A program made the position numbers and the translations under genes. Below, piece after piece: positions 193 to 33,245 of a stretch of 33,415 bases of DNA. The notes under the pieces were generated by a model. The model was not told where the DNA came from. It did not search any database and was given only the letters and a program-made list of their open reading frames with translations. The stretch comes from an uncultured virus (IMG/VR IMGVR_UViG_3300011785_000001) (Duplodnaviria; Heunggongvirae; Uroviricota; Caudoviricetes), in the IMG/VR virus record IMGVR_UViG_3300011785_000001, positions 62,001-95,415 of that record; one strand, given 5' to 3'. Numbering within the stretch: position 1 is the stretch's first letter; each line of letters starts with the position of its first letter.

Positions 193-611
193 AACTCATC
201 CTCTGGAACAAGTCTTCCACCACCACACTTACAAACCATACTCCAGAACTTACTACATGTACAATCCTTCCAAACCATGACAGGAGGAGCTGGAACAAAA
301 GGTGGTCGTGGTTCACCATCACTAACACCATCAAGATGTCTTGGTTGGTAAGGTGGAATGTTTATAAAAGATTTACGGTTTAACTCTGCCAAGTCTTTTT
401 CCAAGTATTCTTTGAAATCCCTCATCCTATCTTCAATAGACTTCTTCGATGTGTGTTTCTCGTGTTCTGGAACTTTACCGATAAACCCATTGTTATAAAC
501 TACAGGGTATTTAACATTCTGGATCAAAGTTAGCTGTTCACGTAACAGTTGTAAATCTTCTTCACTTAATGTCTCTGCATATCGCAACACATCGTATTTA
601 TCAATATTCAA
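189..611 (-). CDS. Hypothetical protein with Pro-rich region and C-terminal CxC..CxC
   Basis: ORF track 189..626; TTG at 611 follows GGAGAG and is the likelier start. Confidence 0.7.
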   Translation of the reverse strand: MNIDKYDVLRYAETLSEEDLQLLREQLTLIQNVKYPVVYNNGFIGKVPEHEKHTSKKSIEDRMRDFKEYLEKDLAELNRKSFINIPPYQPRHLDGVSDGEPRPPFVPAPPVMVWKDCTCSKFWSMVCKCGGGRLVPEDEL

Positions 612-6226: not shown

Positions 6227-6451
6227 TTAAATAAAACCTAAGTGTTGTTTCACTAAACGCTTAACTTGAGCTAATGTTAAATCATCTCTATCTGAAACAC
6301 AATACCCTTTAATACATTTTAGGCGCAAGTCTGATGACTTGCAAGCCCACGTATCATTATATCTTTTACATAACCTCGTAGCGACTGATGGCGATAATCC
6401 ATCATCCACTATGAAGTGTTGATTGTCGGTGGTTAGGATGTAGATAAACAT
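6227..6451 (-). CDS. Hypothetical protein
   Basis: ATG at 6451 overlaps the polymerase stop (TAATG). Confidence 0.65.
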   Translation of the reverse strand: MFIYILTTDNQHFIVDDGLSPSVATRLCKRYNDTWACKSSDLRLKCIKGYCVSDRDDLTLAQVKRLVKQHLGFI

Positions 6452-8835
6452 TAGTGGCAACCATACCAGTTCTTATGCACTACCCACTCCATACCCAACT
6501 CAACCTTCAATCGAGTTTCTTTTTCAGCCATTTTAATTGCCTCTGTAATTGCTTTTGATACAGGGTTTGGTAAGGCAATACGAAACTTACCACTCGATAA
6601 CTCCGTTTTTGCTCCAAGCTGCTCACCTTTCCAGCTATCAATAAACAAATCACAATCTTCTTCAGTTTCAAAATCCTTGAAGTGGATAAGTTTTGGATTA
6701 ACCGCTAACTGGCATTCATCGTGATATTCGATCATACCACACATATCCAATGCGTTATTTGTAAACGGGTCACATCTGTAACCTTGCTCCTCCAACAACT
6801 GATAAATAAACACTGTCGAGTATTTAGCACAAATAACACCTCCGGACTGAAACAAAGCATTTAACAGAGAATGTTGAGAGCGCGTCATAATCTTACGACC
6901 ATCAACGCCAATAACATATTTACTTCCACGCTCTTTCCACTTTCTAGTTACAGCATCTCGCAAGTCACTTAGTGGTTTTACAGCAGACCAATAGTTGTCT
7001 ACCAAAACTTTAGCCTCTTGCATTGAAATACCTAACATTGTTTTTGCCCTAGATGCCGACCCACCGTACATAAGCATGTATGATACTGATTTTGCTTGAT
7101 CTCTCGGAATACCTAGTTTTTTACCGTTGATTGTGTGGATGTCGTTAGGCTTACTTGCAAGCAACTGTTCCGCAAGCTCATCACCCTCGAACGGTAGGAT
7201 ATAGTGCCCTTGAATCCTAGCCTCTAGTGAAGAGAAGTCAAACCCAAGTTGAAACATCCCTTTACCACACCCAAAAAGTGAACGCATTTCTTTACCGTAA
7301 ATTGAGCTTGCACGAGCAACATTACAAACACCTATATGGCGGTAGCGATTAGTTGAAGCTCCAATCTCAATAGATGGTGTTGGTACTCTCCCATCAACCT
7401 CACGATACATTGATAAGAAGCCTGTGTTTGGGTACTCCTCGTCAAAATCCATGTCCTCAATATCACCACCAGCAATACTACTCTTTCTATGCTTGTACGT
7501 TAAATATAAGGTAAAATCGTTAGCAAATGCAACTCTAGAACCTAGTTTAACAAGATTAGGGCAAAGCTCTTTCTCAATTCCCACACGAACACAAGGCGAA
7601 GTTGGTACACGTACAGGTTTATCTTCTGAAAGTTTAGGTAAAAGTTTTCTTCGGATAACCTCTTTATCAACACCCATCTCTAACTCTTTAAGTCTGTGCT
7701 TTTTGTACTTACCCTCATCAAATGTCTGGTTAAGCCATGTATCTAAAGCTTTAACCCTTTTCTCGTAAGGGATACTTTGCTTCTTGTGATTCTTGGTTAA
7801 GTCACGAACCTTAAACTCAGTTGGATTCCAACCCAAACTAATCAGATACATTTTAACATGATCTAGATCAGAAATACTCGCTGGTTCTTCCGTAAGCAAT
7901 GGTTCTGTGATCGGCAGTAAGTAATCCTTTCCATAAAACGTGTAAACTCTTTCCGAAACCTTAATCCCTCCATGCTTCTCAATAAACTTTATCATATGTG
8001 ATGACAAGTTTTGATCTTTTTTAATTTGATTAGCTGGCGGAGTAAAATCTTTCAGTCGAGTTTTTGTCATCGGTTTTGGCGGTAGGATTGGATTAACTTT
8101 ATTTGCCAACTCAGTCATCTTCTCAGTCAAATCCTCAAGGCACTTCACAGCAAGACCCTTATCAAAGTTAAATCCATAAGTTTCTCGTCTAACAGCAAGA
8201 TCAGCAAGCTTATTTTCAAGCTTCTCTGCTTTCTTCCAACCAATGTAAGATTTAAACTCTGACTCAAGCTCCTTAAAAACCACTACAGTAACTTTTGTGT
8301 CTTGTTCACAATATTTCACCATAATTTCCGAATAGACTTTAAACTCAGCACCTTTAGGTGCGTTGTTAGGAATTAATCCAGCATCAATACTCTGCTGCCG
8401 AAAGTCATCCTTGTAATTACCCAACCGATTACCCCAAGCTTCAAGGCTGTGTCCTCCATACCTATCTGGATTAAACAGTCGTGACCTAACAAGAGTATCT
8501 GTAATTTTTACAGGCTTACCAAAAACTTTATCCTCCTGTCCTAAATAGCCAACATTGTAATCTAGTAAACCAAATAGCTTCAACGCTATCAAGTCAAACT
8601 TAATTCCATTATGGGCAATGATTTCTGTAACACCAGAGAGGGCTCCCTCTAATTGATCTTTCGTTATAGTTTTCCCTGTCTTACTTTTCAATACTACTAA
8701 GTCATCTGTATCGACATCTCGAACAACAACACACCATAACTTTGCATCACCGTTAAGTTTATAAGGGAGGCTAGAATAATCAAGCATATTTGCTAAAAGA
8801 TCATTAGTCTCAATATCCACCGTAACACGCTTCAT
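6451..8835 (-). CDS. DNA polymerase family A (T7-like) with 3'-5' exonuclease
   Basis: Exo motifs DIET, HNGIKFD, YCEQD; polymerase motifs A FDFSSLEAR, B RDQAKSVSYMLMYG, C YHDE. Confidence 0.97.
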   Translation of the reverse strand: MKRVTVDIETNDLLANMLDYSSLPYKLNGDAKLWCVVVRDVDTDDLVVLKSKTGKTITKDQLEGALSGVTEIIAHNGIKFDLIALKLFGLLDYNVGYLGQEDKVFGKPVKITDTLVRSRLFNPDRYGGHSLEAWGNRLGNYKDDFRQQSIDAGLIPNNAPKGAEFKVYSEIMVKYCEQDTKVTVVVFKELESEFKSYIGWKKAEKLENKLADLAVRRETYGFNFDKGLAVKCLEDLTEKMTELANKVNPILPPKPMTKTRLKDFTPPANQIKKDQNLSSHMIKFIEKHGGIKVSERVYTFYGKDYLLPITEPLLTEEPASISDLDHVKMYLISLGWNPTEFKVRDLTKNHKKQSIPYEKRVKALDTWLNQTFDEGKYKKHRLKELEMGVDKEVIRRKLLPKLSEDKPVRVPTSPCVRVGIEKELCPNLVKLGSRVAFANDFTLYLTYKHRKSSIAGGDIEDMDFDEEYPNTGFLSMYREVDGRVPTPSIEIGASTNRYRHIGVCNVARASSIYGKEMRSLFGCGKGMFQLGFDFSSLEARIQGHYILPFEGDELAEQLLASKPNDIHTINGKKLGIPRDQAKSVSYMLMYGGSASRAKTMLGISMQEAKVLVDNYWSAVKPLSDLRDAVTRKWKERGSKYVIGVDGRKIMTRSQHSLLNALFQSGGVICAKYSTVFIYQLLEEQGYRCDPFTNNALDMCGMIEYHDECQLAVNPKLIHFKDFETEEDCDLFIDSWKGEQLGAKTELSSGKFRIALPNPVSKAITEAIKMAEKETRLKVELGMEWVVHKNWYGCH

Positions 8836-8853
8836 AAACCCTTCACTCTCCTT

Positions 8854-9450
8854 TTAATCGTTTATATCAACCTCATAGTTGATTAAAGCTTCGTATGCCC
8901 TGTAGTCTATCACATCCTTCCATGCTTCTGCAATCGACTTGATATGGTTTTCTTTGTGAAGCTTGTAAACCTGAAATGCCTCTTCAACGGTTTCATATCG
9001 ACCAAGAAATTTAGGTTTGTTATTAACCCACATCTTAGCTGTAAATTTGTTCCTACTTTTGTCAAAAATTACACCAATAGGAAATTCACCTCTTAAAGCA
9101 TCAGCTTTAACAATAACGTTGTTAATCTCCATAGGGACAAAAACACAAGTATCTTCTGAGTAAATTTTATTACATTTAATCAGCAAGTCTTTATCTAAAT
9201 TCCAGCCATCGTTTCCAAAACCAACTTGTTTGTTGCACCACTCGTAAAAATAGGTGTAATTTTTAAAATTCTCAGATACGCTACAACCTCGATAAGCTGG
9301 TTTCCTTTTAAGGTTGATTTCGCTGTAACATCGAGAAAGCATACTTCGCCATAAAGAATGCTCCTTAGTGTTAGTTGCTGAATATTTACCCTCGTTATAA
9401 CCAACCCCTGCAACAAGTTTAACACCAGCTTTATATCCATTATTCCGCAT
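8854..9450 (-). CDS. Free-standing HNH-type homing endonuclease with AP2-like C-terminal domain
   Basis: W..ML.RCY...Y.GC.V....KNY..F..W, LDKDLL...NKIYS..TC.FVP..IN, then PIGV...KF.A......K.LGRYET.EEA. Confidence 0.85.
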   Translation of the reverse strand: MRNNGYKAGVKLVAGVGYNEGKYSATNTKEHSLWRSMLSRCYSEINLKRKPAYRGCSVSENFKNYTYFYEWCNKQVGFGNDGWNLDKDLLIKCNKIYSEDTCVFVPMEINNVIVKADALRGEFPIGVIFDKSRNKFTAKMWVNNKPKFLGRYETVEEAFQVYKLHKENHIKSIAEAWKDVIDYRAYEALINYEVDIND

Positions 9451-9461
9451 AATATCTCCTT

Positions 9462-9487
9462 AAAATAAAGAGGGGTGAAAACCCCTC
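9462..9487 (-). terminator. Rho-independent terminator after primase-helicase
   Basis: GAGGGGT-TTTC-ACCCCTC-TTTATTTT. Confidence 0.8.
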
Positions 9488-9492
9488 AATGA

Positions 9493-11394
9493 TCACCAGT
9501 CAGGTAATTCCACATCATCTTCGTCCTCTTTAATAATATCAGAAACGATCTCATTAATCTCAGAAGTATCAACAATTTCTTCAAACTCTTGAGCAGACAA
9601 ATAAAAACCTAAATCATCCTCTACAATATCTCCAATCTTATCGTCAATGAAAAATCCATGCTTTTCAGCATAAGAGTATGGGTACAGTCGAGAACAGCTT
9701 GCTCGATAGAATGATTTAGCCACCAATTCACCTGTCATTTCAAAGTCACGATTCTTTGGCACAGAGTAATAAGTTGTGTTTCTTTCAACCCAATCTTCGG
9801 CATTCTTATTACGACTAAGAGTGATAATTAGTGATGATGATTTAGAAATACTACCACTACCCTCGATACTATCCTCCTTTTGTACACCACCATCACTTCC
9901 TGATTTCTCCCCAGAAGTAGCTTTTCGTGTGTGTGTACCTAATAGAATTAAAACACCGTAACGCTTCTTAATCTTCTCTAGAAACAACATAAAACTACGC
10001 TGCTCTTCGTTTGTCTTGTTGCCGATGATATTTTGTATAGGGTCTCCAATAATAACCTTACAACCATAAACAGTGATTAAACGAAGAATACATTTCTCAG
10101 CTTCAGCGATTGTATCAAAATCACTATCAGCAAAATAGAACCGATGATCACCATTTTCATCAAGATAGAAGTCATCAATTTTTGACTTATATTTCAACTG
10201 TAGATCAATCTGTTCTTCCTTACTTAGTCGATTCAAAGGTACACCAATGATACGAGAGTGCATCTTTTGAGCAAACTTCTTACGAGAAGCTTCTAGAGAA
10301 AGAACACCAGTCTTAGCCTTAGATGACATAATAATTGACGACATCGTTGTGTCTAAGTTTGCTGTTTTGCCGATCGAAGTAGACCCGACCAAAAGAACAA
10401 TCGAATCGTACATGAACATTGGGACATAGGGTTTCAAATCAAGCATGTGAAATGGAATAGGTACACCTTCATCATTTGATGCTTCAATACCGTACTCAAA
10501 CAAATCACCACTACCAATAATTCCATAATCCTCAACAGGACTAGCATTCCAATAAGCATCTTGCATATAGGATTCTACATCTTTATTTCGGATATAATCA
10601 TTAGCATCTTTATATCGTAAATTAGCTGTAAACAATTTATCCTTTGGTAGAAAATCCAAACACTTCTGAGTTGCTTTCTTACCAGCGTCATCATTATCCA
10701 ATGCAAGAATAATCTTCTTATGTTTGTTAACCCAGTCAATCTGAGCTTTTAAACAATCTGCTGTACTGTCCTCACCCAATAAACTTGTAACAACATTGAT
10801 CTGACGATTATATTTCTTCTCAATTGGAGCTAACATTTGTTTAGCAGAAACCAGACAGATTTCACCACCAACAACTACAATGGTGTCAGCAACAGCCTGA
10901 GTTTGACCACCAAGAAGGTTTACCTTACCAACATAACCAGTTGAAAAGAAGTTTTTAGGTTTATGACGAATCTTATAACCAGAAATCTTGATCTCACCAT
11001 CTTCAACATATCGTGCTGGAAAATACATATCAGAAACTTTACCTTCTTCATCATACTTCCAACGAATACCCAATTGAGCACAAATATCTTTATCTAAACC
11101 TCGATACTTTGTATTAAGAGTAGGTGATGTTTCGTCTAAAACTTTACTTAAAGCATCTTCATCAAATTTCTTTTCGTTAAACTTGTTACGATCTGTATTT
11201 GTAATTGTCACGCTTTTAAATCCTCCACTTTCTTTCATCTCTTCTAAAAAATCTTCACTATGCTCGGTATAACCACAACTAAAACAGTGACCACCTCGCT
11301 CATCTCCATACCAGTAGAAATTATCTCCTGAACTATCTCTACCTTCTTTTATACAGTTTTTACAAGGGTTCTTACCGAACACGTAAACACTCAA
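9493..11394 (-). CDS. Primase-helicase (T7 gp4-like: Zn finger, TOPRIM, SF4 helicase)
   Basis: CKNC...HCFSC, YKIR, LDNDDAG, KDAND, Walker A GSTSIGKT, SLE, IIGDP, THTRK, GSG, KNR. Confidence 0.93.
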   Translation of the reverse strand: MSVYVFGKNPCKNCIKEGRDSSGDNFYWYGDERGGHCFSCGYTEHSEDFLEEMKESGGFKSVTITNTDRNKFNEKKFDEDALSKVLDETSPTLNTKYRGLDKDICAQLGIRWKYDEEGKVSDMYFPARYVEDGEIKISGYKIRHKPKNFFSTGYVGKVNLLGGQTQAVADTIVVVGGEICLVSAKQMLAPIEKKYNRQINVVTSLLGEDSTADCLKAQIDWVNKHKKIILALDNDDAGKKATQKCLDFLPKDKLFTANLRYKDANDYIRNKDVESYMQDAYWNASPVEDYGIIGSGDLFEYGIEASNDEGVPIPFHMLDLKPYVPMFMYDSIVLLVGSTSIGKTANLDTTMSSIIMSSKAKTGVLSLEASRKKFAQKMHSRIIGVPLNRLSKEEQIDLQLKYKSKIDDFYLDENGDHRFYFADSDFDTIAEAEKCILRLITVYGCKVIIGDPIQNIIGNKTNEEQRSFMLFLEKIKKRYGVLILLGTHTRKATSGEKSGSDGGVQKEDSIEGSGSISKSSSLIITLSRNKNAEDWVERNTTYYSVPKNRDFEMTGELVAKSFYRASCSRLYPYSYAEKHGFFIDDKIGDIVEDDLGFYLSAQEFEEIVDTSEINEIVSDIIKEDEDDVELPDW

Positions 11395-13403: not shown

Positions 13404-13838
13404 TCAGTACAACCACGAGTTATACTGTACATTGAAATCATCACTACTGTCAATCCAATTTAAAACAAAATCGTAATCAGAAATTGATACATCAATAACA
13501 GCATTGTTTTTAATAACACTTGATACAACACGTTCTAATCGTAAGAATCTCTGATCAGTATCATAGAAATGATCGTAACGATTCAAGTAATCCTTATAGT
13601 TTTTACTTGGACTATAATCTTTAGAGTATTCCTCAAAAGTTTTCAACTTCTTCCCGAAAACTTTACCAAACAAAGTTCTATATTGATACGATTTTAACAA
13701 TTTATCATAAGCTTCTTCAACTGTTAGATTAGCTCCACCATTATTTAAGATGAAATCTTGGAAGTTCATAAACCCATACCAAACCATATCGTAGAATTTA
13801 TCAGCATCAATATGAATCACTGTGTTAGTCTTTTTCAT
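13404..13838 (-). CDS. Hypothetical protein
   Basis: 144-aa ORF, AAGGTGAG SD, TAATG overlap. Confidence 0.7.
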   Translation of the reverse strand: MKKTNTVIHIDADKFYDMVWYGFMNFQDFILNNGGANLTVEEAYDKLLKSYQYRTLFGKVFGKKLKTFEEYSKDYSPSKNYKDYLNRYDHFYDTDQRFLRLERVVSSVIKNNAVIDVSISDYDFVLNWIDSSDDFNVQYNSWLY

Positions 13839-13981
13839 TATTTACTCACCTTAATATAAAAACCACACAGGTAATGTGGAATCTTCTCTTTATCAAAATT
13901 AAAAAGTTTAGCTACTCGTTCACTCACATACTCGACACGAATAGTATCACCATAACTCTTTTCTTCTTTAACAATAAACAT
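13838..13981 (-). CDS. Small hypothetical protein (47 aa, not in ORF track)
   Basis: MFIVKEEKSYGDTIRVEYVSERVAKLFNFDKEKIPHYLCGFYIKVSK; GGAG SD. Confidence 0.65.
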   Translation of the reverse strand: MFIVKEEKSYGDTIRVEYVSERVAKLFNFDKEKIPHYLCGFYIKVSK

Positions 13982-13993
13982 TTTTATCTCCAA

Positions 13994-14143
13994 TCAACTA
14001 TAGAAAACCTTACAACCACACTTATTACAACAAACAAAGTAATGTCTGTACCACTTATCCTTACCTTTCTTTATTTTAGGTGTATCGAAATTCAAGCATC
14101 TGTAGCAAAGTTTTTTACTCTTATCAAACTTATCATATAACAT
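13994..14143 (-). CDS. Small Zn-ribbon protein (49 aa, not in ORF track)
   Basis: MLYDKFDKSKKLCYRCLNFDTPKIKKGKDKWYRHYFVCCNKCGCKVFYS; two CxxC; AGGTG SD. Confidence 0.75.
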   Translation of the reverse strand: MLYDKFDKSKKLCYRCLNFDTPKIKKGKDKWYRHYFVCCNKCGCKVFYS

Positions 14144-14173
14144 AAAACACCTATTTAATAAAATATTAAATTA

Positions 14174-14202
14174 ATTATGCACACATTCTAAGTCGGTGTC
14201 AA
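14174..14202 (-). promoter_or_regulatory. Host sigma70-type promoter
   Basis: TTGACA-17 bp-CATAAT. Confidence 0.8.
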
Positions 14203-14204
14203 CT

Positions 14205-14414
14205 CTTAACTTATAAATCTGATAATACCAAAAAATAGGAGAATACCCCTCCCCATACTCTCTGATTTACTAAATACTATCATACACTTACAACACTATT
14301 CAAACAATCACTTGTTATAATACCTATAGTACCCTACTAGGTTATTGCTAATAGGATTATATAGAGCACTATAACGATGTATAATACTCTATAGATAGTA
14401 TTAGGGGATAAAGA
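14205..14414. other. TA-rich non-coding region with clustered short inverted repeats (candidate origin or priming signal)
   Basis: No ORF; many CTA/TAG words; dyads at 14333-14355, 14360-14373 and 14382-14403. Confidence 0.4.
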
Positions 14415-15713
14415 TTAAACTTCTCTTATGACTAAGTTAGTTGTATCACCTAATACCTCTAAGTAACTATCTTTTATCTTAGAATACAGTTGATCTTTAT
14501 ACTTCTTTTGAATAACAAAGCTATCATGGTAACATAGTACAACAATCCCTTTCTCTGTAAAGTGATCAATAACTAATGTAGCAATAGAAGCATCAATGTA
14601 TTGTAATTCACCATACAACTGTTCAGAGAATAAGTATTCCTCAATAAACGGATTATGTTCAACAAAACATTCAATCATGTACTCAGCACTAAGATGTGAT
14701 AATCCATACTCTTTAAGTTTTAATCTAATACCTTTTATAGCACTCGCTTTATTCTTAGAGAAGAGCAGGGGAAACAACATACCTTTAGTGAAGTCTCTAC
14801 TCACCCCTAACTCAATCAGCTTCGGAATAGTATAAGAATCAAAATCATCTGGTAGAGTGATTCCATCTAACGTACTAAGGAACGTACAATGAGCTGATTT
14901 AATATCTAACTCTACTGTTTCTTCTCCATCAATCTTAATGGTCTTTCTACACTCACTTGGTAACGTCTGGAATACAGATTTAGTGTAATATCTTCCACAA
15001 GTGTGAAGATTGTTCTGGAATCTACGTTTGTAGATAATATTGTTACACTCTTTATCCCCATCACCTAAATCAATGGTTATTTTGTGTTTCTCAATAAGGC
15101 TGTTATAAGCCTTTAAGTTTCTCTTTAATTCGGTAATACCTGTCATGCCTCTGGTCTCTTTAAATACAATTGATTTACGTTTGTTCATCTGTCCTGTAGA
15201 CACATTATAAGATTTAGTAACAACTGTTAGTTCATCATTAACAACCTCAATATCATCTTTAGGTTCTTCTCGTCTAGCACCTTGAGATTTTAACAAGGGG
15301 ATGTTGAGAAGATTCAATATTTTTTCATTGATAATTACAGCACTAAGTTCACTGTCTACGTTCTTGTGATAAAACCCTAAGTAGAACTTTATAAAATCTT
15401 CACCATGTAAAATACACAGTAACTCTTTCATCCTTCTTGATGACAGTTTAACATTGAATCGTTTGTTTGCGGAAGAATAGTGATGATCATTAAATGAAAT
15501 TCTATACCCATCTGTACCATATCTAATTGCCTGACCAATGTGTGTAAGGACAACCCAAAGTTCTTGTTCAAATTTCTTACCAACAATATCAATAAGGGTT
15601 TTGTGTGCAGATTTCAAACAAGTGTCTTTTCTCCATATTAAGAAAGAGAAGTATTCTAAGTTACAGATGATACTGTTACGCTCCTCTTTCGGTATCTTTT
15701 TTAATTCAATCAT
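14415..15713 (-). CDS. Minimal superfamily-A / T7-RNAP-like polymerase (TV-Pol-like)
   Basis: CGRYY (cf. T7 RNAP DxRGRxY), IDGEETVELDIKSAH (motif A), RDFTKGMLFPLLF (motif B), LQYIDA, CYHDSF (motif C). Confidence 0.75.
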   Translation of the reverse strand: MIELKKIPKEERNSIICNLEYFSFLIWRKDTCLKSAHKTLIDIVGKKFEQELWVVLTHIGQAIRYGTDGYRISFNDHHYSSANKRFNVKLSSRRMKELLCILHGEDFIKFYLGFYHKNVDSELSAVIINEKILNLLNIPLLKSQGARREEPKDDIEVVNDELTVVTKSYNVSTGQMNKRKSIVFKETRGMTGITELKRNLKAYNSLIEKHKITIDLGDGDKECNNIIYKRRFQNNLHTCGRYYTKSVFQTLPSECRKTIKIDGEETVELDIKSAHCTFLSTLDGITLPDDFDSYTIPKLIELGVSRDFTKGMLFPLLFSKNKASAIKGIRLKLKEYGLSHLSAEYMIECFVEHNPFIEEYLFSEQLYGELQYIDASIATLVIDHFTEKGIVVLCYHDSFVIQKKYKDQLYSKIKDSYLEVLGDTTNLVIREV

Positions 15714-15744: not shown

Positions 15745-15948
15745 TTATAAATTCTCTCTAATAAACCTAACTAACCTTTCATCTTGATCATCACCACATT
15801 GATTGCAGATAGATTCAACTACGTTAATCTTCTTACCATTTCTACGTTCTATTACTTTAATAACGCTAGTAACGTACACTCCATTGCAACCTTCGACTAA
15901 GCATTTCTCTATGTTACTCAAGATATTACTCCTCACCAAACCATTCAA
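15745..15948 (-). CDS. Small Zn-ribbon-like protein
   Basis: CLVEGC...CNQC; true start probably a TTG shortly after GAGGAG. Confidence 0.6.
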   Translation of the reverse strand: MNGLVRSNILSNIEKCLVEGCNGVYVTSVIKVIERRNGKKINVVESICNQCGDDQDERLVRFIRENL

Positions 15949-16138
15949 TAAAAATCATTAAACACTCCTTATGATAATAGTATTCTTTCGATGTTACGAA
16001 ACATGCTCTGCTACGCAACATCCACGCCTTATCATATCCACCAAAGTCAGCAATATAATTGATTGCTTCTTCCAGACTAGGTTGTTCATAACCCATCTTA
16101 ATATCCTCAGCAATAATATTATCAAACAATAAACTCAT
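15926..16138 (-). CDS. Hypothetical protein
   Basis: 70-aa ORF in packed run. Confidence 0.65.
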   Translation of the reverse strand: MSLLFDNIIAEDIKMGYEQPSLEEAINYIADFGGYDKAWMLRSRACFVTSKEYYYHKECLMIFIEWFGEE

Positions 16139-16340
16139 AACCAGTAAGTTTAACCAAATGCTCTACATGAAACCCACCATAATAATTTGTGCTGATGATA
16201 CCCTTTGGATTTAACTCATTATCAATATCAACGTACTTACCATGTGTCGGAGTGTGTGCGATATTCTCACTTAACCATTTCAGAGTAAACTCAATACCGT
16301 GTTTGTTTATAAACTTCTTTGCTTTACCATATCCACTCAT
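16122..16340 (-). CDS. Hypothetical protein
   Basis: 72-aa ORF, GAGGAGG SD, ATGA overlap. Confidence 0.7.
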   Translation of the reverse strand: MSGYGKAKKFINKHGIEFTLKWLSENIAHTPTHGKYVDIDNELNPKGIISTNYYGGFHVEHLVKLTGYEFIV

Positions 16341-16540
16341 TCATAACCCTCCTCAAAATCCCTACAACTCTCACACCACTTCTCTCCAGCATATTGATAC
16401 GCTTCACATAACATTTCTTGTGCTGAATCAATTAAACCTTGTAAGTGTTCATCAGCTTCTTGATGGTGTCTTACATTGTCCTCTAACGTATTCTGAATAA
16501 CATGAATACGATCCATAATTTCATACCAATCATAATTCAT
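16337..16540 (-). CDS. Hypothetical protein
   Basis: 67-aa ORF, AAGGAG SD, ATGA overlap. Confidence 0.7.
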   Translation of the reverse strand: MNYDWYEIMDRIHVIQNTLEDNVRHHQEADEHLQGLIDSAQEMLCEAYQYAGEKWCESCRDFEEGYE

Positions 16541-16854
16541 TCTTTAATCTCCTTAATAATCTTACTCATATTTATTGAGTAGTATTTCTTTAAGTTGTGA
16601 ATCTTGTTTCGTAGAGTATTCAACTCCTCCAAGTATTCTCCTTGAAACTCTAGCAGATTCTCTAGTTTATTTATGTCATCAGACAACAACAAACCTTTAA
16701 CATGGTAGATACTGTCGTAATCATTATCTAGGAATACATGTGTTTTCGGATATAAATTATGTAAGTCAGTAATCGTGTGTATCTCTGGACGAAACTCTGT
16801 CTTACTTGGTGTCATATAAACCAAACAGTATTTACCAATTAAATCTTTAGTCAT
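16537..16854 (-). CDS. Hypothetical protein
   Basis: Start reassigned to MTKDLIGK (AAGGAG SD, just after upstream stop). Confidence 0.7.
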   Translation of the reverse strand: MTKDLIGKYCLVYMTPSKTEFRPEIHTITDLHNLYPKTHVFLDNDYDSIYHVKGLLLSDDINKLENLLEFQGEYLEELNTLRNKIHNLKKYYSINMSKIIKEIKE

Positions 16855-16855
16855 T

Positions 16856-17215
16856 TTAAAACATCTCCTTAAAGTTTTTAATATAAGTTTCAATATTCTT
16901 TTTACCAATAGGATTTTTACTGTGAACCACCACATTAAGATGATCAGCTGGAATGTTGTTATCAATAAAGAAATCTACAAGCCATTTTGTAAATGTGTAA
17001 CCAGTAAGCTCACCATTCTCATTAAACTCTTGTAAGTCGTGGTCTAAGCTAAACAAGGTATTCTTGAAATCAATAACATCTTTATATCGAACAATCTCCT
17101 CAATCATTTGAGATGATGTTCTAAAGGTTCTAAACTGTTCAACATTATCAGGATAACTTACCCAATTTACATCAGTGTAGTTCCTTTCATCATCTAAGAA
17201 ATAACAAACTTTCAT
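16856..17215 (-). CDS. Cyclic-phosphate-processing receiver domain (cREC-type) protein
   Basis: FLDDER ... SLDHDL ... TGY ... VHSKNPIG signature. Confidence 0.8.
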   Translation of the reverse strand: MKVCYFLDDERNYTDVNWVSYPDNVEQFRTFRTSSQMIEEIVRYKDVIDFKNTLFSLDHDLQEFNENGELTGYTFTKWLVDFFIDNNIPADHLNVVVHSKNPIGKKNIETYIKNFKEMF

Positions 17216-18111
17216 TTTAAAACATCTCCTTTACTAACGCCTTTCATCTTTAACATCTTAGCAAGAGTTGGATTGTTTAACAAGTGATCAGGAATACCTT
17301 TTGTCGCATTAGGGTTTCCTTTCATACCATCTTCCCAACCTTTAATCATACTCTTAGGGATGAACGGCTCTTTATTCAATTGTTCATCAAGACGTTTCTG
17401 TTTCATGTGTTCAGCGTACAAGTGTTTTGGAATCCATTCTTGTTTCTTAGGTTTCTGTAGGATGTTCTCATTGCTCGTATTTGACATTTTATTTGGTTCG
17501 TGTACGTATGTACCACCTACATCTGTATTCGAGCTATTAGGTGCTGTTTTTAAGCTCTCATGTACATATCCAACAACGATTTCACCAATCTCAATAAAAT
17601 CTCGTTGTTTTGGTTTTAAAACAATTTCTTCATCTAAATTAAAATCTTTTTCGCTGTTAAGATTATTTTTAGATTTAATTAAAGATTCTTTTAGATTCTC
17701 TGTCCCAAATTTACCACCGTTACTAGGAAATTCCACACCGTTTATTGGTAAATTTACCACTGTCTCTTTGTAAATTTCACCATGTTTCTTTGTAGATTCT
17801 TTATCCTCCTGTGGATAACTTTCTTGATTAACAGTGTCAACGTTAATCTTTAAGACTCGAACTTGATTAGTTCCACCTTTACGTTCACCTGTGTCAGATA
17901 TAAGACCTAGAGTAATAAGGTCATTAATCGTGTTCATAACAGTCTTTCTATCCATACCTGTATCCTTAACAACTCTTGCAATTGATGGGAAGCAAGTGTT
18001 CTCTTTATTTGCACGATCTGCTAAAGCTAAAAGAACAAGACGTTTAGCACTTCTCTTAGTTGTTTTTGATAAGTCACATTCCCAAGCAAAACGTGTAGCA
18101 TTAACACTCAT
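17212..18111 (-). CDS. HTH_36 winged-helix replication-initiator-like protein
   Basis: A..FAW...KRLVLLALADRAN....CFPSIAR...DTGMDRKTV...I..L...GLI.DTGERKG.T.QVRV N-terminus typical of temperate-phage initiators; internal direct repeats. Confidence 0.8.
   Translation of the reverse strand: MSVNATRFAWECDLSKTTKRSAKRLVLLALADRANKENTCFPSIARVVKDTGMDRKTVMNTINDLITLGLISDTGERKGGTNQVRVLKINVDTVNQESYPQEDKESTKKHGEIYKETVVNLPINGVEFPSNGGKFGTENLKESLIKSKNNLNSEKDFNLDEEIVLKPKQRDFIEIGEIVVGYVHESLKTAPNSSNTDVGGTYVHEPNKMSNTSNENILQKPKKQEWIPKHLYAEHMKQKRLDEQLNKEPFIPKSMIKGWEDGMKGNPNATKGIPDHLLNNPTLAKMLKMKGVSKGDVLK
17660..17793. repeat. Iteron-like array (4 x 21-22 bp) plus adjacent AT-rich AGATT repeats
   Basis: Units at 17707 AAATTTACCACCGTT, 17728 AAATTCCACACCGTT, 17750 AAATTTACCACTGTC, 17772 AAATTTCACCATGTT; AGATT at 17660, 17671, 17683, 17693. 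Confidence 0.7.
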
Positions 18112-28826: not shown

Positions 28827-30845
28827 TTAAGGTTGTGTTAGTGTTAGAGGACTTAAATCCCCAAGTCTTGCCGAACCTCGATCTAAAATACGCCCTGCCT
28901 GATCTTTAAGTAAGATATTCACAGTATTATTAGTTGACTTAGGTTCTTGAAAGTCTGGTAATGTGCTAGGGAATCTACTTGTATCTGCTGGCTTGTTTGG
29001 CTTAAATTTTCTCTCAACATACCTAAGAGCGTCTTTAGCATAACCTAAAACTCCAATGTCAGGAATCATATTTGATGCTCTAAAGGTGCTACTATCACCA
29101 AACAACTCTAACGGATTCTTAGCATAATACTTCATTTTCAAGAAGAAGTTATCAATTCTTGAAGATGCTAAATCAATGTTGGCAAACAACAACTGAAACT
29201 GCATCCCAAGTAGAGTTACCCAGTTTACTTCTCCAGAATTACTTCTCTCTAAAGCAGAAAGTGCTTCAAACAACGCCCAAACAACTAANNNNNNNNNNGC
29301 AAGAGTAATGTGTTTAATACTCAGTATTGAAGTTTGCAAGGCGAATAACTTAGACATGTTGGTAGCAGCTTTACCAGCAGTAGTAAACCTGAGAATTAGT
29401 AACAATGCACCAGAAAGTGCTACAAGTAACCTTCCATCTACAGCAGAAGCAAGATTCTTAACACCAACTCCAAAATCCCAAACACCTTTAGTCATCAAAC
29501 CAAAACCTTTAATCATTGGTTCAATAAGCTCTAGGACTTTAGCCATACCAGAGAACACATAGAATAAAGACTTATCCAATCCACTACTCATGATAGTTTG
29601 CGATAATCTATCAATAGCGTTCATGAATCGTTGTTGAGCAACAGCAGAGGTTTGGAGCATCTTGTTTAAGGCATCGTTGTTATTAGCCATAGCTCTCATT
29701 CTGTTTGAGAGGTTTACAGCAATATCTTCAACCTTAACTGCGCCTTTCTGACGCATCTTCTCGTAACCAGCACTATCAACACCATAGACTTCCATAGCTG
29801 ATTGCTTAATCAACTCTTTAGCTGGAAGACCACGTTCAGCCATTTGTCCTTCTTCTTCAGCTTCAATCTTACCTTTCGTAAGCATTTGTCCGAATGCACG
29901 ATAGATACCTTTCTGGTCTTCTACGTTAGCACCCATAGCTGTCATCAACTCACCGAAGCCTGTGAATACTTTTTCAATATCTTCATACTTCATTTTACCA
30001 CGAGCTGACTGCAATACCTTACCAAAAGCCATACCCAACTCTTGTGTACTTTGACCAAGACGATGAGATTCTTTATTTACAAACTGTAGAGCTTCTGCGT
30101 ATTGTTCTTGACCGCTAGCTGCCATCAGAAGAACGTTATTCATTTTAGTCATTTCACGACCACGTTGAACAACTTCTTTAGCTGCAAAACCTGTTGATAC
30201 TAAACCACCAGCGATTGCTGTAGCTGGAGTCATACTACGGAAGAAATCTTTAACACCCCCACCTAATGCGCCAAACATCATTGCGCCACCAGAAGCACTT
30301 GTAGGTGACTGTGGAGGATGAGCTACAGATGGTCTAGGTGAGGTTTGATTACCACCATAATACTTGTTGTTTACAGCAACACTGCCAGTACCTCTACGCA
30401 TGTCAGCCATAGATTGCTTGAAACTACGCATCTCGTTGTTAGCAGAAGAAACATTCTTACGATATGCTTCCCAAGCATTACTACCTTTCCACACAGTAGC
30501 ACGAATATTATTTAAAGCTTTAACAAGAACAGGTTCGTGAGTTGTAATACTCTTGTGTGATTGCTCAACACGTTCAACGTAATTAGCTAAACGACTGTAG
30601 CTTTCAGACATTCCTTTGTTGTTCTTACTCTTAGAGCTTTTACTATCCGAAGCTAAACTTCTATTAAGAGCATCAACTTTCTTTTTAACTAAGGTTAGTT
30701 TATTAGCAACCACACCTAAGTTACGAGCGAACATTGCAGAGTTTTCACGTAGAGTACGTAATCTTGATTCAAACTGTGCAGCACCAGTGTCATCAACCTT
30801 GAATCCAAGTGATGCAAACATTCTTGTTAATTCAGTTTGAGCCAT
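28827..30845 (-). CDS. Tape measure protein (contains N gap near 29289-29298)
   Basis: SLGFKVD start, RAFGQMLTKGKIEAEEEGQMAER tape-measure motif, helical Ala/Gly-rich. Confidence 0.9.
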   Translation of the reverse strand: MAQTELTRMFASLGFKVDDTGAAQFESRLRTLRENSAMFARNLGVVANKLTLVKKKVDALNRSLASDSKSSKSKNNKGMSESYSRLANYVERVEQSHKSITTHEPVLVKALNNIRATVWKGSNAWEAYRKNVSSANNEMRSFKQSMADMRRGTGSVAVNNKYYGGNQTSPRPSVAHPPQSPTSASGGAMMFGALGGGVKDFFRSMTPATAIAGGLVSTGFAAKEVVQRGREMTKMNNVLLMAASGQEQYAEALQFVNKESHRLGQSTQELGMAFGKVLQSARGKMKYEDIEKVFTGFGELMTAMGANVEDQKGIYRAFGQMLTKGKIEAEEEGQMAERGLPAKELIKQSAMEVYGVDSAGYEKMRQKGAVKVEDIAVNLSNRMRAMANNNDALNKMLQTSAVAQQRFMNAIDRLSQTIMSSGLDKSLFYVFSGMAKVLELIEPMIKGFGLMTKGVWDFGVGVKNLASAVDGRLLVALSGALLLILRFTTAGKAATNMSKLFALQTSILSIKHITLXXXXLVVWALFEALSALERSNSGEVNWVTLLGMQFQLLFANIDLASSRIDNFFLKMKYYAKNPLELFGDSSTFRASNMIPDIGVLGYAKDALRYVERKFKPNKPADTSRFPSTLPDFQEPKSTNNTVNILLKDQAGRILDRGSARLGDLSPLTLTQP

Positions 30846-32715: not shown

Positions 32716-33245
32716 TTAGTTAATCAACCAATCTTCATCTAGAACATAACCTAGTTGCTCTAATACTTGTTGAACATCAGCACCAGCACGAGTGTTACCA
32801 CCAACATGCCAATCCGAGTAAGGCATGATTACTTGCCAATCGTTAGTAGCTAATGTTCCACCGAATGATTGGTTTGGAAGCATAGTTACACGAGCTTGTG
32901 TACTAAACAAAGCTGTACGACCACTCTTATCAATAATAGAGATAGCAAACAAACCTTGACCACGAAGGTTTTGTTTATCGTACTCGTAGATACGAGATAA
33001 GACATCATTAGAAGATGAAGTTTGTGCTAGGTGTAATGTAACCATAGCTGTTTCATCAATATNNNNNNNNNNNNNNNACCATCTGTACCTACTGAGTGTG
33101 TCCAAGCTGCTTCACCACGTTCAATGTCGATTGCTGTATCATCAGCATATCCTTCGACAACGTGAGTAACACCTGTTGCTGTGTGACTGATAACAGCTAA
33201 TACCTGAGAAGGTACTAAGCTACCAGCCTGACGACCATTTGCCAT
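32716..33245 (-). CDS. Major tail tube protein (one gene split by an N gap)
   Basis: MANGRQ...GYADDT...VGTDG [N gap] IDETAMVTLHLAQTSSSNDVL...IIDKSG; the two ORF-track pieces join across the Ns at 33063-33077. Confidence 0.8.

Follow-up and report, generated by a model that had tools for sequence, protein, structure and literature searches.

The TV-Pols, predicted in 2008 by Iyer, Abhiman and Aravind, are described as a minimal, nuclease-free polymerase core with a two-helix thumb, a hairpin bearing an invariant arginine, two palm aspartates, and fingers that are inserted after the first palm strand and carry a conserved aspartate and an RxxxK motif (PMC2579912). A subset of them possesses an uncharacterised N-terminal domain and adjoins resolvases, integrases or transposases in restriction-rich regions (PMC2579912). 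Only one TV-Pol is known to have any biochemistry, the distant CcPol-MP pair of SCCmec, described in two reports (PMC7581432, PMC10061031). According to these, CcPol is a primase-polymerase that uses deoxyribonucleoside triphosphates (dNTPs) and needs MP, a partner resembling SSB, the protein that binds single-stranded DNA. Primer-free starting of a DNA chain has been shown for the pair by Bebel et al. 2020, while CcPol without its partner only extends primers; residues corresponding to E710 and F762 of Pol I are kept in CcPol, which prefers dNTPs (PMC7581432). MP belongs to no sequence family, and some Pol components of such Pol-SSB pairs may be vestigial and inactive (Rice 2023, PMC10061031). 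The subject of the present analysis is a protein of 432 amino acids (aa) that resembles the N-domain-bearing TV-Pols and is encoded by a tailed phage of the class Caudoviricetes. Its gene lies on a stretch of 33,415 nucleotides, referred to as the window, which corresponds to positions 62,001 to 95,415 of the uncultured virus record IMGVR_UViG_3300011785_000001.

The source record is 95,415 bp long and 98% complete, the window forms its right-hand third, and the gene is present as a single copy. In the predicted structure, the protein joins an N-terminal winged helix to a minimal polymerase. The reading favored here, with a probability of roughly 0.55, is that of a two-part enzyme in which the winged helix would select a site, the core would start a chain there without a primer, and the product would be handed over to the phage PolA and a gp4-like enzyme. 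The gene and its two parts are located as follows.

14415..15713, minus strand: polymerase-like gene, a 432-aa open reading frame (ORF) with an ATG start, matching phrog_4756 'unknown function'; putative winged helix plus minimal family-A/T7-type polymerase
15279..15626, minus strand: N-terminal winged-helix domain of the predicted model, residues about 30-145
14418..15266, minus strand: polymerase core assigned by Foldseek and VIA, residues 150-432, with thumb region, GR hairpin, palm and fingers

The evidence for the core is structural. An AlphaFold2 model built on a 35-row alignment has a predicted local distance difference test score (pLDDT) of 90.8 and a predicted template modelling score (pTM) of 0.86. 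Compared with the PDB by Foldseek, the model gives 81 matches at E<=1e-3, and all of those shown are family A DNA polymerases, headed by the apicoplast polymerase (9qsc_A, E 2.3e-6) and followed by Taq, Bst, Aquifex and M. smegmatis Pol1. VIA, a structure search independent of Foldseek, returns 15 chains at Z>=8, every one of them a family A DNA polymerase or a single-subunit RNA polymerase (RNAP), and its DNA-polymerase alignments cover model residues about 150-432. The individual VIA scores are given below.

Apicoplast Pol (apPol): Z 13.4, 239 aligned, root-mean-square deviation (rmsd) 4.3
Yeast mitochondrial RNAP (mtRNAP): Z 13.3, 340 aligned, rmsd 7.8
Klenow: Z 12.2
Pol nu: Z 12.1
T7 DNA polymerase (DNAP): Z 11.9
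T7 RNAP: Z 11.6, 333 aligned, rmsd 8.9
Human mtRNAP: Z 10.0
N4 RNAPII: Z 7.7

That residues 150-432 amount to the most reduced workable catalytic core of the kind found in Pol I and T7 RNA polymerase, lacking both a proofreading and a 5' nuclease domain, is well supported by the model. As to the thumb, which in TV-Pols consists of two antiparallel helices, DSSP assigns one long helix at 193-209 plus strands within residues 150-235. An original prediction, made from the DNA letters and their translated ORFs, had proposed that structure prediction be used to look for a PolA-type palm, and the model contains a palm, fingers and thumb region of the Pol I / T7-RNAP type. The prediction had also judged the protein to be about half the size of T7 RNAP, which agrees with 432 versus 883 aa (49%; NC_001604), and to have no recognisable exonuclease domain. 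Pfam indeed yields no exonuclease or polymerase domain at E up to 10, and the region preceding the core is a winged helix in the model, not an exonuclease. Lastly, it had listed GRxY, ELD..S.H, R...K, Q..D and HDSF motifs in the order of T7 RNAP. The translation bears this out when set beside T7 RNAP, where the matching series is GRVY 424, FDGSCSGIQ 536, R627...K631...YG, HSQD 784 and HDSF 811. Conservation of the motifs was counted in an alignment of 149 diverse relatives that are mutually no more than about 50% identical.

14985-14996, minus strand: GRYY, residues 240-243, with the beta-hairpin arginine R241 (R241 149/149, G240 148/149)
14889-14912, minus strand: motif A, ELDIKSAH, residues 268-275, with catalytic D270 and, five residues on, H275 (D270 149/149, E268 146/149)
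14757-14798, minus strand: motif B or O-helix, RDFTKGMLFPLLFS, residues 306-319, with R306, K310, F314 and F318 (R306 147/149, K310 149/149)
14592-14603, minus strand: QYID, residues 371-374, in the long helix before motif C (Q371 133/149, D374 142/149)
14517-14528, minus strand: motif C, HDSF, residues 396-399, with catalytic D397 (H396 148, D397 149, S398 145 and F399 118 of 149)

Five residues, R241, R256, D270, K310 and D397, are invariant in all 149 relatives, so that both catalytic aspartates, whose conservation among homologues had been proposed as a check, are retained throughout. A further set (G240, E268, Y294, R306, L370, D374, H396 and S398) is found in at least 142 rows each. The fingers aspartate D292 is aspartate in 132 and glutamate in 8 of the 149; position 275 is histidine in 130 and glutamine in 11; position 318, phenylalanine in the phage protein, is asparagine in 113, phenylalanine in 21 and tyrosine in 13. 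Conserved as they are across 149 diverse relatives, the motifs are not a product of chance. In the model, strands 228-233 and 241-244 form the GR hairpin, helix 306-318 carries motif B, and motif C occupies the turn that leads from strand 392-395 to strand 398-402. The motif B counterparts are RDQAKSVSYMLMYG in the phage PolA and RSVTKRSVMTLAYG in T7 RNAP.

Residues about 30-145 likely form a winged helix-turn-helix, a DNA-binding fold, in the predicted structure. The DSSP order in the full model is helix 46-64, strand 69-72, helices 76-86 and 92-104, and strands 108-116 and 120-128. When residues 1-150 are folded alone on a 44-row alignment, the same helix-strand-helix-helix-strand-strand arrangement is obtained with a pLDDT of 93.3. 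Those VIA matches to this domain that have recognisable descriptions are mostly winged-helix proteins, namely CodY, CtsR, PerR/Fur, ORC/Cdc6, PadR, MarR, TFE and kleisin.

Purifying selection acts on the gene: of 40 listed differences between it and contigs of relatives that are approximately 93-95% identical, 36 fall at third codon positions; a further 98 differences stand outside this count. The relatives' contigs came from two sequencing runs (X1 and X3), the latter an RNA-Seq library, and such contigs cannot show transcription. Of two other runs, X7 yielded two short pieces and the raw-read RNA run X18 gave 0 reads, a result with no bearing on expression. As for the wider family, a word search with the single protein found 43 relatives. 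A profile built from 35 of these was run against 1.84 billion representatives clustered at 50% identity. It matched 11,686 at E<=1e-3, of which 8,618 reach 1e-10 and 4,949 reach 1e-30; the majority of the matched proteins measure 400-560 aa and align over their full length. Among GenBank phages, 220 records match, all below 60% identity, including 115 from Rheinheimera, 82 from Vibrio (ICP1 among them), 13 from Aeromonas and 5 from Pseudoalteromonas. The annotation of 39 of the 40 phage records listed is hypothetical or missing, and one Pseudomonas phage record reads 'DNA polymerase'. The libraries are no more informative: the full-length PHROG match is phrog_4756 (E 2.6e-80), Pfam offers a sub-threshold zinc-ribbon match, NCBIfam nothing real, and the ESM Atlas unnamed clusters and no structure for the protein. 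Among 20 diverse relatives there is likewise no Pfam domain, nor any match to PF00476 at E up to 0.01. A single functional hint emerges from the libraries: residues 373-420 match phrog_414 'RNA polymerase' at E 0.12. The enzyme is real, intact and widely distributed, yet unnamed in the databases.

Within the phage genome, the gene is preceded by a replication initiator and lies on the same strand as a block of replication enzymes. The features of this setting are the following.

17212-18111, minus strand: replication initiator (HTH_36 E 1e-13; phrog_6643 'replication initiation protein' E 8.6e-32)
16856-17215, minus strand: cREC_REC protein
15745..18111, minus strand: upstream run that includes the initiator, the cREC_REC protein and five small ORFs, which abut or overlap
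14237..14414, minus strand: untranslated 3' stretch with a terminator-like hairpin at its end
9493-11394, minus strand: T7-gp4-like primase/helicase (Toprim_2, DnaB_C)
8854-9450, minus strand: HNH endonuclease (Pfam/PHROG match)
6451..8835, minus strand: PolA, 794 aa (PF00476 E 1.7e-11; phrog_17 E 7.8e-99)

Every ORF from the initiator (18111) to the stop of the gene (14415) is encoded on the minus strand, and neighboring ORFs abut or overlap. The only terminator-like hairpins of the region lie at 18235-18208, before the initiator, and at 14253-14237, after the gene; beyond the second hairpin is the best sigma-70-like site of the region (14202-14174, 11/12 positions). Because same-strand abutting ORFs run from the initiator through the gene and are followed by a terminator-like hairpin and then by a promoter-like site, the gene looks like the last cistron of a replication-initiator operon. 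The replication-enzyme block (6451..11394) has further matches to phrog_953 and phrog_239, and the phage also encodes a tail and baseplate module, a lysozyme and a dCMP deaminase.

Several smaller observations concern the same region. The 3' stretch, in which 160 nt separate the stop from the terminator, folds as RNA (14225-14414, minus strand) with a z of -3.8, none of 200 shuffles being as good, and holds several TATAG-containing inverted repeats. No Rfam family was found on 13800-14600. The stretch is kept in a 97%-identical relative and only patchily in a 57% relative, and nothing ties it to the enzyme. Small ORFs with cysteine pairs, resembling zinc ribbons and belonging to no family, flank the gene: one of 49 aa at 13994-14143 (minus strand), just after the downstream promoter, and one of 67 aa directly upstream at 15745-15948 (minus strand). 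When the 95-kb genome was searched by k-mers for a repeated promoter-like word, the sole candidate was an AT-rich 14-20-mer present at four to five sites between genes. This word (TATTTAATTAAATATTAAAT-like) occurs at genome positions 16075, 20098, 37667 and 49883, with a partial copy at 76161; the latter, position 14161 of the window, falls just after the sigma-70-like promoter. Some close relatives of the phage PolA measure 1,013-1,092 aa and contain intein or HNH domains (PF14890, PF07591, PF13392); the phage's own PolA has no such domain, and the HNH gene adjoins it. The tape-measure region and the right end are broken by runs of N at 29289-29298 and 33063-33077, which make up 25 N in the window; the genome has 45.

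How far, then, does the protein fit the TV-Pols? The nuclease-free core, the hairpin arginine, both palm aspartates, the fingers aspartate D292 and the RxxxK motif are all present. Like TV-Pols, the protein falls at 400-600 aa with an extra N-terminal domain and occurs in a phage that has its own polymerase, and its bacterial relatives adjoin integrases, resolvases and restriction genes. Two features differ. An all-helical N-terminal domain was predicted for TV-Pols (PMC2579912), whereas the model of the phage protein has a winged helix of helices plus strands. In addition, no D5-type helicase, integrase or resolvase stands beside the gene in the window, its neighbors being the replication initiator and small ORFs. 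Microcystis phage Ma-LMM01 is reported to carry a TV-Pol element (PMC2579912), and it counts against membership that two profiles of the present family matched nothing in that phage; nor did sequence searches link the family to any named TV-Pol. Judged by its features and context, the protein is best filed as a putative TV-Pol-type enzyme of the N-domain-bearing form. The original prediction had called it TV-Pol-like, with a full DNA polymerase alongside and little biochemistry known for its kind. The 794-aa PolA is that polymerase. The TV-Pol likeness stands on the residues and bacterial neighborhoods just described, and it is qualified by the failure of any sequence search to reach a named TV-Pol. 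The remark on biochemistry is partly out of date now that CcPol has been assayed; it still applies to the N-domain-bearing branch, for which no assay was found in the literature. The roles that the prediction had put forward, an origin-specific primase or a minimal RNA polymerase, stay putative.

In the favored scheme, the winged helix would keep the enzyme bound to one specific DNA site, probably the phage replication origin or somewhere close to it. The polymerase core would begin a short chain at that site, and the phage PolA and the gp4-like primase/helicase would then take over. We infer for such a protein the role of a primase, or primase-polymerase, directed to a site. The scheme would resemble the priming of the primary origin of T7 by T7 RNA polymerase as well as the priming by CcPol-MP at the SCCmec origin. 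Mitochondrial RNAP also acts as an origin primase (PMC2579912). The likeness to CcPol-MP extends to a nuclease-free polymerase of family A type and to location, CcPol being part of a mobile element in an operon with a replication starter. Unlike the phage protein, CcPol has no N-terminal domain and leaves template binding to MP; the phage protein has a predicted winged helix of its own, and histidine in place of the glutamate.

Several points weigh against this scheme. The phage already possesses an initiator and a Toprim primase/helicase. CcPol needs its SSB-like partner to prime (PMC7581432), and no SSB-like partner was recognised among the small neighbors of the phage gene, nine of which match no PHROG of known function and 11 no Pfam family. 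At the level of sequence, HMMER searches with the protein and with two family profiles against all PDB sequences reached no solved polymerase; their only matches, TRF2 and TrmB at E about 0.1, are not polymerases. With hhalign, the alignment to nine T7-like RNAPs spread over 26-100% identity (probability 19.5%, E 0.0012, 56 columns) and that to eight spread PolAs (probability 1.4%, E 0.037) are not significant. Despite these weak statistics, both are in the right motif register: D374 falls on D787 of T7 RNAP and HDSF on HDSF, while D270 falls on D533 of PolA and R306/K310 on R578/K582. Alignment to the single T7 RNAP sequence gave a probability of 0.1, that to the single sequence of the phage's own PolA an E of 0.017 at motif B, and that to 20 close PolA relatives a probability of 0.2 over an irrelevant stretch. 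For the N-terminal domain, the best VIA score is Z 6.3, below the caution line of Z 8, and Foldseek gives no match at E<=1e-3, the best being E 0.076. Finally, the gene is accessory and dispensable for this phage type, because it is absent from the syntenic 93.6-kb Acinetobacter phage Phab24, which has only small genes between tailspike and primase/helicase, and because no Acinetobacter phage is among the 220 matching phage records. In other phages its neighbors vary, and three of the five phage records checked hold two copies. These are distant copies of the family, and two of the matches hold one in-frame stop each. Pseudoalteromonas phage J2-1 has two copies, and homologues are also carried by Vibrio natriegens phages (PWH3a-P1, VnaP).

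The next point is the nature of the chain, RNA or DNA. A steric-gate glutamate keeps ribonucleotides out of Pol I enzymes, and we take E538 of the phage PolA to occupy its place. In T7 RNAP, Y639 reads the 2'-OH. The corresponding residues of the three enzymes compare as follows.

Motif A: phage PolA D533-FSSL-E538; T7 RNAP D537-GSCS-G542; 432-aa protein D270-IKSA-H275
Motif B: phage PolA R578...K582...Y586...Y590-G; T7 RNAP R627...K631...Y639-G; 432-aa protein R306...K310...F314...F318-S
Motif C: phage PolA HDE (HDEC); T7 RNAP HDS (HDSF 811-814); 432-aa protein HDS

Read from the alignment, the family has neither the gate glutamate of DNA polymerases nor the tyrosine of RNA polymerases, and its motif C, HDS in 145 of the 149 relatives, is of the RNA-polymerase type. 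Since neither the DNA-polymerase gate nor the RNA-polymerase tyrosine is present, the use of ribonucleoside triphosphates (NTPs) versus dNTPs cannot be read from the sequence. Like family A DNA polymerases, to which its best structural matches belong, the family has a motif A of the form D-[YF]-S, as in the DYSQIE type, and hhalign places motifs A and B in register. Unlike them, it has no exonuclease and no PF00476 match at E up to 10, a histidine at the gate position, HDS instead of HDE, and no Tyr-Gly. With T7-like RNAPs it shares the motif order, GRxY, an identical HDSF and structural Z scores of 13.3, 11.6, 10.0 and 7.7. It departs from them in being half their size, in lacking the Tyr-Gly of motif B and any recognisable T7-type promoter-binding N-terminal domain, and in reaching the PHROG RNAP profile at only E 0.12.

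A second proposal is that the protein is a dedicated minimal RNA polymerase whose winged helix serves for promoter recognition and which, instead of priming replication, transcribes one or a few phage genes or a non-coding RNA. Motif C, HDSF as in T7 RNAP as opposed to HDE in the phage PolA, is in keeping with it, as are the substitution of the gate glutamate by histidine (130/149) or glutamine (11/149), the single library hint (phrog_414) and the fact that the best profile-profile alignment is the one to T7-like RNAPs. In VIA, mtRNAP and T7 RNAP score as high as DNA polymerases, and N4 RNAPII (Z 7.7) provides a precedent for small T7-type RNAPs. However, the Tyr-Gly of motif B that is present in both T7 RNAP and PolA is missing, with phenylalanine at position 318 where 113 of the 149 relatives have asparagine, and every Foldseek match shown is a DNA polymerase. 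A private set of promoters is also hard to find, the AT-rich word being the only repeated promoter-like candidate in the 95-kb genome. Moreover, for the bacterial relatives, which reside in small integrative elements, a private RNA polymerase would have no obvious use. A transcriptase of this kind is considered rather unlikely.

A different possibility is that the gene belongs, as its replicase or as a relic, to a selfish element of the TV-Pol type, which passes between phages and bacterial islands and serves its own spread, not the phage. Bacterial relatives were examined at 34 loci with two neighbors on each side (125 ORFs); of 47 loci found, nine short or cut ones were dropped by eye and four of the 38 kept had no clean ORF. 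The 47 loci come from Rhodobacterales, Rhizobiales, Desulfobacterales, Planctomycetes, Opitutales, Ignavibacteria and Alteromonadaceae, largely the groups reported for TV-Pols (PMC2579912). In favor of a selfish element, an integrase (Phage_integrase) adjoins the relative at 10 of the 34 loci and a resolvase at 3; genes for type I restriction or GmrSD are neighbors at 5 of the 34 and small regulators of the AlpA or MerR type at 3. On the viral side, 50 loci were found and 37 kept, 13 having been dropped by eye as near-duplicates, as cut by contig ends or as lacking an ORF. Here 9 of the 37 loci have genes of the homing-endonuclease type (HNH, GIY-YIG, phrog_681) within two ORFs, in most cases immediately downstream. 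At two loci a helicase is found upstream and at one a replication initiator nearby, and the other neighbors are mostly of unknown function. The absence of the gene from the syntenic Phab24 and the two copies in three of five phage records point the same way. So does a FastTree phylogeny of 71 rows (38 viral and 33 bacterial, one row, L075, left out), which includes several long-branch joins and in which viral and bacterial rows interleave with ten label changes, at least five of them forced by starred branches. Against this reading, no integrase, resolvase or transposase lies near the gene in the window. The gene sits inside a tightly packed operon and shows purifying selection, and endonucleases are modestly in excess, at 10 of 144 viral neighbor ORFs. 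In the tree, the phage protein falls into a group of 23 rows, all of them viral (its support of 92 lies below the star threshold), a placement that suggests the gene has long resided in large phages. A selfish replicase is, on this evidence, unlikely.

Quite improbable is a gap-filling, lesion-bypass or counter-defence polymerase that would extend existing 3' ends where the winged helix is bound, with no priming role. CcPol without its partner behaves as a primer extender (PMC7581432), the phage protein has no proofreading domain, and its gene is accessory to the phage type; however, the neighborhood points to neither repair nor defence, and the gene is placed behind a replication initiator. 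That the fold is a catalytically dead polymerase kept for DNA binding or scaffolding is very improbable, since nothing speaks for it directly beyond the suggestion in PMC10061031 that some Pol components of Pol-SSB pairs are vestigial, and both metal-binding aspartates, the hairpin arginine and the fingers lysine are retained in 149 of 149 relatives.

Returning to the two-part enzyme, its interest stems in the first place from its family, which is very large and spread through well-studied phages such as ICP1 and through many marine Vibrio, Aeromonas, Rheinheimera and Pseudoalteromonas phages, yet is unnamed. This branch differs from CcPol at the very residues that decide between RNA and DNA synthesis, and it is predicted to carry a DNA-binding domain of its own. 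At its boldest, the proposal would make the protein, at approximately 430 aa, the smallest T7-type polymerase in nature that is directed to a site, with a winged helix that picks the site and a primer-free start in RNA, acting as an origin primase or a private transcriptase, and with a design common to sequence clusters, more than 11,000 in number, from phages and bacterial islands that are unnamed in any database; this stronger version is doubtful. Should the enzyme only extend primers, it would be an ordinary accessory polymerase. If instead it primes alone at a chosen site, it would represent a third route to primer synthesis beside the DnaG and archaeo-eukaryotic primase (AEP) types, as well as a compact enzyme of practical interest.

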